Shown here piece after piece: positions 30,601 to 36,600 of a stretch of DNA of 64,000 nucleotides. Position numbers: made by a program. The stretch comes from Escherichia coli (GTDB lineage Bacteria > Pseudomonadota > Gammaproteobacteria > Enterobacterales > Enterobacteriaceae), in assembly GCF_045037415.1 (NCBI RefSeq), contig NZ_CP173438.1. One strand, 5' to 3'. How positions within the stretch are numbered: position 1 is the stretch's first letter; every line of letters starts with the position of its first letter.

Positions 30601-33600
30601 AGGAGCAGAAGGAGAAACAGAAGCAGCACATTTCCTGTTGCATTCTTCTCAGTGTATCCGCATGCAATTGTGGTTATTGCAGAAACAACAAAAAAGAATA
30701 AAAACAATAAAATCCGGGGGGTGTTTCCCGGACAAAACAGTTTTCTGATATTCATCGGAGTATATCGACAACATTATTATGAAGAGAACAGGATAATAAA
30801 AATCAGAATTATCTGTAAAACAGATAACAGACAACCCTGCAGTAATAGACTGCAGGGTATTTCTGTTTAATTGCAGAAGATATGCAATTATCTTAATTAC
30901 AGAATATACGCAATTATCGTTCAGGAGCAGTGTCGTCAGAAGTTATAAGTCATACCAAGCATGATGTCATGACTTTTAACATCAACTTCTGACTTATATT
31001 TATCGCCCCACTCGTCCTTGTAACTCACACTGCTGTCACCTGCATCAAGATAGCGATAGCTGAGGTCCAGAGCGATATCCGGGGTTACGTCATAGCGGAC
31101 ACCCGCGCCAAGGCTCCATGCGAAGTTGTCAGCAGAGCCTGAACGTGACAACGATTCGCGACCACTGCTTCCGTACTCATAATCCCAGGTACTGATACCG
31201 GTTGTTTTCTGGTGAATTCTGGCGTAGCCAATCCCTGCGGATACCCATGGTGTGAATGCGCTGTCATTCCGGAAGTCATAGTACGCATTCAGCATTAGTG
31301 TGTTGACTGACACCTCATTCTTCAGGTCATCACGCCAGTAACCACCTGACCAGCTGTCTTTATCTACGTTATACTTCGAATCAGCTTTTCCACGAGCGTA
31401 AAACTCCAGTTCTGTACGAACCGGAATACTGAACTGCGGATAAAAATCATAACCGACCGCAATACCGCCACTGAATACCGTATCATGGTCATCGCCGCCT
31501 TTATACTTTGATGTTTCTTCCTCATCTCCTGACAGGAAACGCTGGTCTGAAAGTGACATCACAGAGGCACCGGCTTTACCGGTCAGATAAAAACCGCTTT
31601 TACCTTCCTTTGCTCCTGCATTTACTGCAAATACACAGGCTGCGGCCACCACTGAAACAACAAAAACCTTATTCATTTCAATTATCTCCATTATTGTATC
31701 ATCATTTTAATATATATTTTTAATATTTAAAAACCGGACTAAAGGCAGCCTCAACACTCCACACTACGGAAGCCAGACTTTTACTCTACACAAAATAAAT
31801 ATATCTTCTCAGTGAGGACGTGAACGCCTGTCTGAAATTATGTGAATACAACCTCCCCAGAATACAAACAGGCAGGGGCACTGGAGTAACCGATCACAAT
31901 ACTTCTGCCTTTTTATATTTTACCGATAATCTCCGTTTAATATAGTTCTTACCGATTTCATAATCGGGGTTCCATGTAGATAAATTATGAACACCTATTG
32001 CTACTGCACTCGCCACTCCCAGAATTACGGTTGGTGACCATAAAGAACCAGCTAAAGCTGTACTCCTGTACTCAGTATATACACGACAACTTAATTTCGT
32101 TTTCTCTATTTCATGCTCCACTCTTTTTACCGTTTCACTAACATCGGAAACATTTTCGATCACAAAACTCTTACGTTCATAAATAAGCTTGCTTAATGTA
32201 TTTATATCTAAAAATTTCGCATCAAAAGAATCAATCTGTACTGTTTTTTCTTGTGCTGACATCTTCTTTTCCTGGCTGGTATGGCAAGTGACGGAGACAA
32301 GAGAAACGTTTTAAGCTCAGTTATCTCCGCCATCACTTTCCACGAATGACAAGTAATTTTGCCTATTTTAAAACCATGCAAAAGGCAGGGTAAAAGGAGA
32401 AAATTCGATCGAATCGATCGACAAAATCGATCATACATGATGAAGATTTTTTATCGAATCCATAAAAATAGTGACAGCTAACCGGCGTTGCAGGAACAGT
32501 CAGAAATGGGCGTTTGGGAAAGAGCCATAGCACTACGTCGTCGCTGACATAGAGGAACTGTGCTTTGTTGATAAGATCCTTTATACGGCAACCAATCCAC
32601 TGGACAAAAGATGAACTACGTAATCACCGGGTTCTCACTGACGAAATACAGAAGTTAATGACACAACTGTGCCATGTACCTTGTACAACAGCGGTGGAAA
32701 GCTCTCAGAACAATGGAATTGCAGAAAGGTGTTAAAACGATGAAAGCCTTCATACCCAAATCGAATGTAAGAACGGCAGTAAAGACTGAATTGCGTAACC
32801 TTGCAGTAGCTCGAGTATTACACTGCATAGTGTGCAGGGTTATCTCCCATCGAGAAAATATCGGCGCCAGCGAATAACGTCACCTTAGATGTAGCAGTTG
32901 CCAAATAGTGACTCAAGGGCGGGCTTACCGCATACACTGACACTTAGCGGATCGACAGAATATTATTAGCAGATCATCACTGAACGCTACGTAATTATCG
33001 TAATAAAGGCTTTTTCTGGCTACCAGGAAGACCTGACATGGCTCTGCTCTGGAACCAGGCCGCAGGAAGCATCAATCTGGAGTTTATCAGCTACTGGAAT
33101 TCCGGTGTATTGGCAGCCCCTGATAATCACCTGACCCACGAAGAGCGCTCTGCTTTGCAGAAACTCTGGGGCGGTTTGGAGACAGGAGATGTAACGATTA
33201 TAGGACGTTCTGATGAAGTCCATGATTTTACCTCCGCCTTAATTAACTGTTTTCTTTCTGAAGAAGAAATTGTCTGGTGGCAATCAGGTGGCATTTTCCC
33301 GGATCCCTGGCCCGCTAATATATCCCGGCTGAACTGACGATTAACGCGATATTGCAAATATGGCATCTGAATCGATCATGATTTGGCGGCATCCATCTCC
33401 GTTCACAGTTTGGCATGCTTCCGATCATTGATTGGCATCCAGCCAGTCACTCCGGGAATTAACTCTTTTCACCGCAGTCTCCATTGCCGTGTTTAAACCA
33501 ATGGAGACGTCAATGTCCAAAAAGAGAAAATCCAGGAGTGATCCTACCCACGTAATGTGGACACGGCCCTAAGCGAGATTATGGTTTTCAAATTGTTCCG

Positions 33601-36600
33601 GGCTGAGAACCGCCACAACTCCTTCTCCTGCCCGGGCAAAGTGCCTGGTTCAGACAATGATATTAACTGGCTGAAATTTTCGACGCGGTACAGGTCTCCC
33701 TGCTTTGAAAGGTGCCTGGCGCTGCAATTTTTATCATTTGTTTTTGTATCCGGAAAAACACATCTGCAAGAATCATTATTCTTTTGCCTGAAGCTATCCG
33801 GCATACTCAGGCATTTCACGCTTTATGAGCTGACATCATCAAGATGCGCCAGTAATTTTTTATTAATGACTTCAAACAGTTCCTGTTCATCATGGGTCAG
33901 ATAACCCCAGATTTCTTTCAGATACATGCTTTGTGCAAGAGTGAGCCTCTGAATAAAAAACATACCTTCAGATGTCAGACTGATTTTTTTAGCACGGCGA
34001 TCCTCCCTGCTATCCATCCTTTTTACATATCCGGCTTTTTCTAAAAAATCTGTAATGCGGGTAATATTAGTTCTGGTAAACTGAAGTTTCTGGCTTATCT
34101 CTGAAGGTGACAGACAATGACTCTCCGCTGCGAATAATGTGGTGAGAACCATATATACTGAGTGATTTATTCCATACACCCCCAGAAATTCAGATATATT
34201 ATCCTGCATTCTTTTATTTGTGCGAATACAGAGTTGCATCAACAAATGCTCCCGAAAGGGATATGCGGGGTCTTTGTTTTTTTGGTGTCTGATTATTTTT
34301 TCTAATGTGTCTGTGTTATTCATTTCATTATTCTCCATATTACTGAAACACACTGTCTGTGTACAAGCGCGCATCAGTCATCCGGTAAACATCGACTTTC
34401 CACTACAATTTATTCCTGCCTGATTTCTGTATAACTGAGATATTCCTACACAGCAGACAGATAAATTCCCTCAGATAAAAGAACATAAATGCTGGCTGCT
34501 GACAAGTCTGTGAAAAAGGATTATCCATACTGCTCAGTAATCGCGGATCATTCACCAGCCCTCCGCCCGTCTGAAAGGTGACTTCCCGGGGCATCCCAGA
34601 TATCCACAACACTCTATCCGGCTCCGGATAAACCATTTATGGCAATATCATGAGCAGCGTTGCTGAACCAGATAGTACTCCTGGTTGTATCTTTGAAGAT
34701 TCACCATAGAGGCGACTGCCGATGGTCAGGTTTTGTGTACCTGCTTTGTACCATCTCATCGTTGTCTCTCCTGTGTCCACCCCGTTAACCGAAACAATGG
34801 AGTCCCAGCCATGCCCCAGACCAACCGAAAATTTCTTACCATGGCTGTATGTCGGAGTTGTATTTCTTAACAGCATAAAACGAATATTTGCAGGCACATC
34901 GCAAGACACAGAAAGAGTCTGAGCCGCATAATGATTATTAGCGCTATTAATAGACAGATCACCATGCTTTATTTCCAGAGACTGTGCAGAAGGACGGCAT
35001 CCGCCGATATTCTTAAATAAGAATAACATTTCATTCTCTCTTGGGAGGGTTTTGGCCACATTGTATGGGATTTTAAAACGGGCCCCCAAGTAACTCGCGA
35101 AATGACGCTGTATGCCGGAAGTGTATGGAATTGTAACAGAATAATCCCCTAAAGGAAGATCTGCAGGTAGGGCGACTTTAAAAATAATATCGTCAAATTT
35201 CTCAGTCAGACGGATTGTTTCTCCTGGTTTCTGACACAAATTAGCTGTATCAAAGGCCCGCTCATCCCACTTATACCCCTTGAGAAAAAAATAGCTGTCA
35301 TTGTCACCAGTATTCTCCTCACTCCAGCTACCTTTATTATGAACCTCAATAAATAAGGGATATCCATTTTTGGTCATAACCTTTTTGGGGAATACTACCC
35401 ACGCAATATACTCCCTGTAGTAAGCCCAGGAGCCATCAGCGAACTCAGGACCATTACACTGATTCCAGGTTACCGTAGCAATGCCCGGGCGCCACGAAGT
35501 TATAAATTGTGGCCTTTGAGTAATCACCACATTCCCTCCCTGATAAGAGTTAACGTCTCCAAGGGAGTAAAAGACAATATTATTCCATGCAGAGGACTCA
35601 CCAGACACACACAAGGAAAATAACAAAGCTGGGAACCATTTTTTCATCAGAAATCACTTCCGTAATTACAGTTATTCATTTAGGTATGACTCAGTTATAA
35701 ATCATGCTCATACTGGCCGTGGTCCGGAAATCCCCGCCATTCAGTGTCCTGCTGCCATTACGAAAGGGCACTGAAGTAAAGGTGAACGTTGAACGTGCTG
35801 TGTCCAGACCTGCTGTCACTCTGTAACCATTTCCTGAACCATTACCTAATGTAAGAGGTGTTGACATTCCTTTTCCCTGATACAACGCTATACCAAAATT
35901 GGCTATATTTGTTGCCAGTACATTAGTCTGCCCAGCCATTGCATTACCTGTGACCTTTATCCAGGGTGAGCCACTCTTATACGTACAGGATATGCTTATG
36001 GTTTTTGTGATTTCACCACGTGAGTTGTCCACGTGCTCAGGATTAATATTCCCAAAATCGACAACAATATTCTGCCCGTTATTAATGGTGCATGGGGGGA
36101 TATAAACATTTCCCCTGATGTTAATCTGCACATCAGCCAGTACAGCGACCGATGTCAGAAGCAACGATATAAATAATGATAAACGAGCCATTCCCCCTCC
36201 GGAGAGCGGTACAGAAAATATTTTATTTTATGAGATATAAAATCGGCGTATTTTAACTGATAGCATTACGAATATGATGCAACCAGCGTTGCCGTTGCAG
36301 AAAATGTTCCCGCCCGCAAATTCTGTATATCTCCTTTATATCCAAGTTTTGCATAGAGAGAAATGTTTCTGGCCGGAACCTGACCTGAGACATGCTCTGG
36401 TGTGAATGGTGTCCCCAGAGTTATAGCATCACCGATACTGCCATTTTGATGACGATTGTACAGATAAATAAGCAATCCATCATCGGTCCGGGATGAGGTA
36501 CCCTTAACTATAATTCCCTTGTTATAAGTCGCTGCCGATGTAGATATCGTAACCTTCATTGTTCCCAAATGATAAGGACATGTCATCTGGACAGTAAAGT

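Follow-up and report, generated by a model that had tools for sequence, protein, structure and literature searches.

The DNA analysed here is a 64,000-nt window of Escherichia coli contig NZ_CP173438.1, and this report concerns a gap of 1560 bp within it (positions 32263-33822), which lies between the start codon of a gene for a hypothetical protein of 122 amino acids (aa) and the stop codon of papX. Both neighbouring genes are on the minus strand, the former starting at 32262 and papX (33823..34374) having its stop at 33823. The host island is a tRNA-Phe (pheU-side) pathogenicity island of ST131-type, papGII-positive extraintestinal pathogenic E. coli (ExPEC). To the left of the gap, the gene order runs dcuA-cutA-dsbD-dicD-tRNA-Phe-integrase, followed by genes for an AAA protein, a phosphoethanolamine transferase, an outer-membrane protein and the 122-aa protein; to the right follow papX-papG-II...papI. 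The genes for the AAA protein, the transferase, the outer-membrane protein and the 122-aa protein, together with the pap operon, are all on the minus strand. At 90% identity, the outer-membrane protein clusters with proteins of which the named ones are 'adhesin/virulence factor Hek' and 'Tia invasion determinant'; it is called Hek-like below. The gap itself is very probably a scar of recombination and decay in the island: nothing intact is encoded in it, and it consists of a chain of leftovers from successive mobile-element events. By mapping its segments to annotated loci in other strains and then realigning them locally to fix the breakpoints, we assigned ~93% of the stretch to recognised pieces. 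From left to right, these pieces and the features they belong with are as follows.

31894..32262, minus strand: gene for the 122-aa hypothetical protein (WP_001275822.1, from the NCBI Prokaryotic Genome Annotation Pipeline, PGAP), whose sequence shows a hydrophobic C-terminal segment that may span the membrane
32263..32361, minus strand: proximal 5' region specific to the 122-aa gene, a putative 5' untranslated region (UTR), delimited by alignment with strains 97-3250, P15-385 and STEC005
32362..32472, minus strand: shared promoter-type upstream region, with homology to DNA that immediately precedes the Hek-like gene in STEC005 and P15-385
32473..32588, no strand given: unassigned piece of ~116 bp
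32589..32888, plus strand: decayed C-terminal remnant of a DDE (rve-type) transposase/integrase, found by tblastn and blastn
32889..32995, plus strand: leftover intergenic DNA from upstream of a TonB-dependent receptor-DUF4198-CobW operon (AR13438 locus, 2616-2671)
32991..32995, no strand given: deletion junction with 5 bp of microhomology, GTAAT
32996..33337, plus strand: pseudogene of a CobW/COG0523 (ZigA-like) GTPase, its last 119 codons, containing the 99-aa open reading frame (ORF) 33038..33337
33353..33535, plus strand: solo left end of an IS21-family insertion sequence (IS), with terminal repeats and leader and without istA, aligning directly upstream of istA in TUM1881
33536..33618, minus strand: solo right end of ISEc16 (IS3 family), with the terminal repeat from TGATCC... 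and the last ~16 transposase codons
33619..33822, minus strand: non-coding 3' flank of the pap operon, downstream of papX, which accompanies papX in other pap loci
62398..63309, minus strand: second ISEc16 part, 912 bp at 99% identity to positions 8615-9525 of the GmM077 locus (blastn)

How much could such a stretch encode? The preliminary description of this DNA had reported almost no convincing coding capacity at 32263-33822, and this holds to the exact coordinates: the gap contains no intact gene, and the longest ORFs confined to it measure 99 aa (33038..33337, plus strand), 91 aa (33544..33819, minus strand), 79 aa and 76 aa. An ORF of 115 aa (33557..33904, plus strand) reaches that length only by extending antisense into papX. 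These sizes are what chance leads one to expect in 1.5 kb of DNA at ~45% GC, the composition is unremarkable (37-49% GC across the stretch), and searches of ten small ORFs against Pfam and NCBIfam returned no credible family. On identical DNA of other genomes, the sole RefSeq/PGAP feature is a pseudogene at 32996-33337, labelled 'GTP-binding protein / CobW C-terminal domain' and flagged as frameshifted, incomplete and missing its N-terminus.

The distribution of the stretch among relatives shows how it is built. By megablast against 5426 complete E. coli genomes, the entire 1560 bp was present at 99-100% identity in 391 of them; sub-segments turned up in 2383 genomes, where they stand in unrelated contexts, occur on plasmids and number up to 35 copies. 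Unrelated contexts, plasmid copies and multiplicity of this order mark the gap as a mosaic that includes IS fragments, and the IS21-like segment explains many of the multi-copy and plasmid matches. The identity of the pieces, their breakpoints and their independent occurrence elsewhere can be read directly from the alignments.

The two solo IS ends lie side by side. The IS21-like fragment (183 bp, with repeated TTTGGCAT...GAATCGATCA motifs) is 84-95% identical to TUM1881 and is interrupted by ISEc16 5 bp before the annotated istA start of the TUM1881 copy, so that istA and istB are both lacking. In an O157:H16 strain, homology covers the first 1276 bp only, reaching to the IS21-like fragment; there, the same element runs on into ATGGATACC... 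and the start of istA, and is followed by other IS-rich DNA. The ISEc16 right end (82 bp) is 98.8% identical to the end of an intact ISEc16 that sits at the same IS21-fragment junction in GmM077, and carries one extra base (A at 33608) relative to both Ecol_AZ146 and GmM077. It has a counterpart in the second ISEc16 part at 62398..63309: the two are co-oriented, lie 28.8 kb apart and together make up one ISEc16 minus 255 bp. A complete ISEc16, with terminal repeats and intact orfA/orfB, is not present, and this is a remnant and no active element. In the block bracketed by the two parts, the pap operon is accompanied by an F17/Ucl-like fimbrial operon of four genes. In GmM077, the identical left part extends through the IS21 fragment to the intact ISEc16, beyond which lie microcin H47 genes where the window has pap. 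Rightward of its second ISEc16 part, the window gave no match to the GmM077 microcin region, and it is thus not a simple insertion into the GmM077 arrangement. Position 33618/33619 is a true seam between separately assembled modules. An earlier suggestion that the gap might be a junction of separately acquired modules is borne out, in that sub-segments move independently and the left part is joined to other modules elsewhere.

The interior of the gap consists of gene remnants. Against the conceptual product of a pseudogene in AR13438, the transposase tail matches in two frames with frameshifts and stops (tblastn, E 2e-11), and nucleotide identity is 77% over 323 columns (blastn). It keeps an NG(I/M)AER motif and a ...QRITSP end. 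The reference pseudogene carries rve and rve_3 domains, and the homologous stretch of STEC005 is an 'integrase core domain' pseudogene in PGAP. A continuous rve-core ORF is not present in the window: only the C-terminal ~100 codons are detectable, and Pfam was blank on the stitched translation.

Next to this tail lie 107 bp from upstream of a TonB-dependent receptor-DUF4198-CobW operon, their match stopping 60 bp short of the receptor start codon in AR13438. This match (locus L006) ends at 32995 and the match to cobW (locus L005) begins at 32991, which leaves the five shared bases GTAAT at the junction. To the right of it, the sequence picks up a CobW-family gene at codon ~279, the last gene of the same operon in ESM1.4. 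Judging by these alignments, ~3.9 kb has been lost here, comprising the genes for the TonB receptor and the DUF4198 protein and the first ~279 cobW codons. The best sigma-70-like match that a promoter scan of the stretch returned, CTGACA-18-TATTAT (32937-32966, plus strand), is presumably the promoter of the deleted operon, now aimed at the 99-aa CobW fragment.

What survives of cobW is 82% identical (tblastn, E 2e-64, with an 18-nt gap) to residues 281-399 of a 399-aa relative, and at the nucleotide level 92% identical to the gene end plus 50 bp downstream. The intact relative has a cobW domain (residues 5-203) and a CobW_C domain, with a ZigA match below the cutoff; the fragment is missing the N-terminal cobW GTPase domain. 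A YeeP/YkfA-type GTPase remnant, guessed at from the PGAP label 'GTP-binding protein', was ruled out by this assignment to the CobW family. The copies in GmM077 and O157:H16 exceed the window's fragment by 5 bp and carry a frameshift, that of O157:H16 with an additional stop, and in the window lineage a second small (5-bp) deletion happens to restore the frame. Such differing disruptions among lineages speak for neutral decay of the fragment. ORF 33038..33337, as its alignment with intact relatives indicates, is a CobW/COG0523 remnant by descent and not a functional member: compared with ZigA-like GTPases of this family, 119 C-terminal residues and 107 bp of operon upstream region are kept, but the tail is all that is left of the protein, the deletion having taken the GTPase domain along with the receptor and DUF4198 genes. 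Clear homology of a small ORF to a conserved protein, which the preliminary description had placed in opposition to its own account, was therefore found in this one case; since it extends only to a truncated remnant, it backs the 'decayed genes' of that account instead of refuting them. Decayed genes are indeed what the gap contains, in the form of the CobW pseudogene tail, the rve/DDE transposase tail, the two solo IS ends and the ~3.9-kb deletion scar.

Could the 99-aa ORF nevertheless work as a stand-alone CobW C-terminal-domain protein, driven by the promoter of the deleted TonB-receptor operon? Its frame is open and begins with an ATG preceded by an AGGA-type sequence at a distance of ~8-13 nt, the best promoter-like match of the stretch lies 70 bp upstream, and the secondary 5-bp deletion has restored the frame in this very lineage. 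However, the ORF is without the whole GTPase domain (residues 1-280), neither Pfam nor NCBIfam recognises it, PGAP consistently calls a pseudogene, and the frameshift and extra stop in sister lineages indicate that the fragment is not under purifying selection. A working protein is therefore extremely improbable.

Taken together, the pieces suggest a history of assembly, the order of which we infer. The leftmost piece is the 5' control region of a module formed by the 122-aa gene, Hek/Hra and the phosphoethanolamine transferase. Next comes the tail of a dead DDE transposase and then the upstream region of a TonB receptor-DUF4198-CobW operon of metal-uptake type, whose interior was removed by a microhomology deletion of ~3.9 kb that spared no more of the CobW-like GTPase than its last 119 codons. 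An IS21-family element would have inserted ~15 bp downstream of cobW, and ISEc16 into that element just before istA, the left end of the former and the right end of the latter surviving. The last piece, the non-coding pap 3' flank, marks the start of the 28.8-kb pap and Ucl-like block bracketed by the split ISEc16, and it may have been ISEc16 that mediated the joining of the Hek module to this block.

As such, the scar is ordinary pathogenicity-island patchwork, already partly annotated as a pseudogene. Like other tRNA-associated islands of ExPEC, this one has the adjoining tRNA-Phe and integrase and a mosaic of adhesin modules (Hek/Hra, pap, Ucl-like). As at the junctions of such islands, solo IS21-family and ISEc16 ends, a truncated transposase and a truncated cargo gene meet at the seam, and in other strains the left module has different partners on its right. 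Nothing in this is unusual; the particular chain of remnants and the split ISEc16 around the 28.8-kb pap/Ucl block are what is particular to this island type (the 391 of 5426 genomes). The stretch thus records how a widespread papGII island was put together, with the Hek module joined to the pap/Ucl block via IS21 and ISEc16 scars and the loss of a metal-uptake operon as part of the same island history, and the scar could be used as a structural marker for island typing.

Several points weigh against an account of the gap as nothing but debris. The piece at 32473-32588 co-travels with its flanking pieces (87% identity in STEC005 and P15-385), and gave no match to the transposase reference by blastn at word size 7 or by tblastx. 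In the window lineage, the CobW fragment has an ATG and reads open over 99 aa, ~70 bp 3' of the best promoter-like match, and expression of a truncated CobW peptide is possible. The stretch may also give rise to an unannotated, lineage-specific transcript. Finally, the order of insertion and deletion, and the choice between one and two source copies of ISEc16, are deductions from the arrangement of the remnants.

The gap had further been thought possibly to carry non-coding RNA, and a small regulatory RNA (sRNA) can be imagined in three forms: one resembling PapR, an AgvB-like anti-sRNA in the pap flank, or one derived from the papX 3' UTR. Pathogenicity islands are known sources of sRNAs, and PapR has been described in uropathogenic E. 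coli (UPEC; PMC4546395). The pap flank (204 bp) accompanies papX, and its counterpart beside an unrelated pap remnant of the ST131 strain 18044 is 93% identical to it (190/204, with indels), the homology starting at the same base in the window and 18044 pap loci. The adjacent papX coding sequence, however, is 97.6% identical in 18044 and hence better conserved than the flank, whose 91-aa ORF is disrupted by an indel in the 18044 pap locus. At gathering thresholds, Rfam had no match inside 32263-33822 when the whole window was scanned; a permissive scan of 31500-34500 (E<=1) returned only AgvB at 33751-33819 (plus strand), with 20.9 bits against a gathering threshold of 56 and E 0.83, which is chance level. 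Folding of the flank did not stand out from shuffled sequences (z = -0.77), and a scan found no canonical terminator in it.

PapR itself was tried as a candidate, being a pap-related regulatory RNA of UPEC and an obvious one to look for near pap, and was rejected. In strain UTI89, this sRNA is encoded outside the pap island and has near-perfect complementarity to papI over 22 nt (PMC4546395), whereas blastn-short of the stretch against the rest of the window, including papI, gave only a 14-mer (E 0.31). With the null result from Rfam, the lack of complementarity to papI and the ordinary fold of the flank, the suggestion of a non-coding RNA finds no support, and an sRNA encoded in the stretch appears very unlikely. 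The right ~200 bp are probably a passive 3' untranslated end of the pap operon.

This leaves the left end of the gap, the ~200 bp next to the 122-aa gene, which are likely the only part of the stretch working today, as the promoter/control region of that gene and possibly of the Hek-like gene. The 122-aa protein family is conserved, with 42 homologues at identities down to 43%, and has no match in Pfam or NCBIfam. The upstream region at 32263-32472 accompanies the module of transferase, Hek-like and 122-aa genes (95.7% identity in strain 97-3250). Its proximal part, 32263..32361, is missing from variants in which the Hek-like gene directly adjoins the GATC-containing region, STEC005 and P15-385 being strains without the 122-aa gene.

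The distal part contains three GATC sites (32407, 32416 and 32429) in palindromic TTCGATCGAATCGATCGACAAAATCGATCAT, which precedes the ATG of the 122-aa gene such that the sites lie 148-170 bp from it. A promoter-like TCGATA-16-TATGAT (32457->32430) puts its -10 hexamer across the GATC that comes first on the minus strand. The cluster is reminiscent of the agn43 (flu) switch, and raises the tentative possibility that GATC 32407-32432 is a Dam-sensitive binding site for OxyR or a regulator like it, overlapping or just 3' of a promoter for the 122-aa gene and possibly for the co-oriented Hek-like gene, which would render their expression phase-variable like that of antigen 43. Such a site would add to the scar model for the gap as a whole, leaving the remnants as they are.

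What speaks for such a site? Nowhere else in the 64-kb window do three or more GATC fall within 40 bp, and GATC is reported to be under-represented in ST131 genomic islands (PMC4659465). Nevertheless, a Poisson estimate from GATC counts gives ~0.3 such clusters per 64 kb by chance. Among 6393 window tiles compared with the K-12 flu regulatory region, the cluster was the best (score 29; mean 13.6, standard deviation 2.5). The second-best tile was the region upstream of the Ucl-like major-subunit gene, and since Ucl fimbriae are published as OxyR-regulated (PMC9236248), this tile serves as an internal positive control, with the identity of the window operon as ucl resting on its four-gene layout and F17-like subunit only. 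Of the 22 positions of the OxyR consensus, 13 are matched by the cluster, 14 by flu and 13 by ucl, and only 14 of the 64,000 window positions reach 13; other sites at 13-14 of 22 lie at 31701, 31920 and 30798, other AT-rich intergenic sites are among those reaching 13, and AT-rich intergenic DNA generally scores high on this consensus. The spacing of GATC1 and GATC2 (13 bp) and their context GATCGATTTTGTCGATCGAT mirror GATC-II/III of agn43, GATCGTTTATATCGATCGAT. By contrast, the cluster spans 26 bp, and its spacing (13 and 9 bp) is compressed relative to the 19 and 13 bp of the flu switch. The OxyR footprint at agn43 measures ~40 bp, which the cluster falls short of. In addition, the same palindrome, as an TCGATCGATTCGATCGA hairpin, also scores as a weak terminator-like structure. 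An origin of the cluster as a remnant of IS21 terminal repeats was considered and dropped, as the 10-mer AATCGATCAT is common to both and no alignment extends beyond it.

Relatives of the module bear on the question as well. In STEC005, the cluster is kept and extended to four GATC directly upstream of the outer-membrane protein gene. More divergent homologues of the 122-aa protein (56-68% identity) usually adjoin a YeeP/YkfA-type GTPase gene in CP4-like island backbones, and their upstream DNA cannot be aligned except for one motif, ATAGATAAnAACGATCGAT...ATTATTGATCGTT...TAGATC(A/G)ATG. This motif holds three GATC at successive distances of 18 and 13 bp, lying between -112 and -185 (loci L015-L017, L019 and L024, upstream of the gene at 3001 or 2447). 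An nhmmer profile built from these homologue promoters gives E 1e-6 for K-12 flu and E 0.007 for the STEC005 variant, but only E 1.5 for the window cluster, and some of the more distant family members are without a GATC cluster (L014, L021-L023). In the literature searched, nothing relevant was found on Dam/OxyR control of hek/hra or on unmethylated-GATC lists for ST131.

Three observations on related loci may be recorded here. In P15-385, where the module adjoins atoS, the GATC cluster in front of the Hek-like gene has been lost by a precise deletion of 54 bp (locus L009, 2455-2510). A ~150-kb CTX-M-15 plasmid (L025) carries a paralogue of the 122-aa gene with two of the three GATC sites kept. 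In E. coli B25FEP (L027, 2330-2630), eight GATC sites fall within 300 bp upstream of an unrelated 113-aa hypothetical gene near a SIR2-family gene; they sit in agn43-like CGATCGAT repeats, which suggests that this promoter type has been reused for other island genes.

Side by side with the agn43 switch, the window region thus shares three close GATC in CGATCGAT-type palindromes adjoining or overlapping a promoter of a surface-protein module on a mobile island, a 13-bp GATC pair nearly identical to GATC-II/III, an OxyR consensus match as good as those of flu and ucl, and divergent homologues of the downstream gene that bear an unmistakable agn43-like motif. It differs in its compressed cluster and the poor match to the profile of its own family, and in that the candidate regulated gene is a small hypothetical protein and/or Hek and no autotransporter. 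Salmonella gtr and opvAB, as well as the OxyR control of Ucl fimbriae, may be grouped with agn43 as comparable systems. On these features, 32362-32472 is a candidate, if a doubtful one, for a Dam-sensitive control element of the 122-aa gene and perhaps of Hek. That it would be a full antigen-43-type, Dam-dependent ON/OFF switch, hitherto undescribed, for the 122-aa gene and, directly or by read-through, for Hek/Hra, with agn43-like triple-GATC promoters as a recurring control module of the 122-aa gene family in CP4-type island backbones, we regard as rather unlikely. If true, Hek/Hra, which like Ag43 mediates autoaggregation and adherence, would be phase-variable by the logic of antigen 43, and one more adhesin would join Pap and Ag43 in the epigenetically heterogeneous surface repertoire of ExPEC.

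Elsewhere in the window, three GATC in GATCGTTTT-type boxes lie in the region upstream of the Ucl-like operon (52480-52620, minus strand), together with ATAGGTGCAATCTAT, a perfect OxyR half-site. This F17/Ucl-like chaperone-usher operon of four genes (47492-52448) is headed by the fimbrial subunit gene 51900..52448. The main text of the paper on OxyR and Ucl contains no term beginning 'methylation' (PMC9236248). Compared with the otherwise identical island of Ecol_AZ146, a 1-bp deletion at 40166 splits papC (ORFs 38789..40090 and 39997..41319), and another at 25981 splits the gene for a 1171-aa AAA-domain protein (25633..26187 and 25995..29147). These are either real inactivating frameshifts or sequencing errors; if that in papC is true, P fimbriae would not be assembled. 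Lastly, Rfam matches at gathering level occur at 43883-44059 (plus strand), just beyond papI, for AS-pc02, an antisense RNA family, and at 9729-9775 (minus strand) for a Guanidine-II riboswitch.

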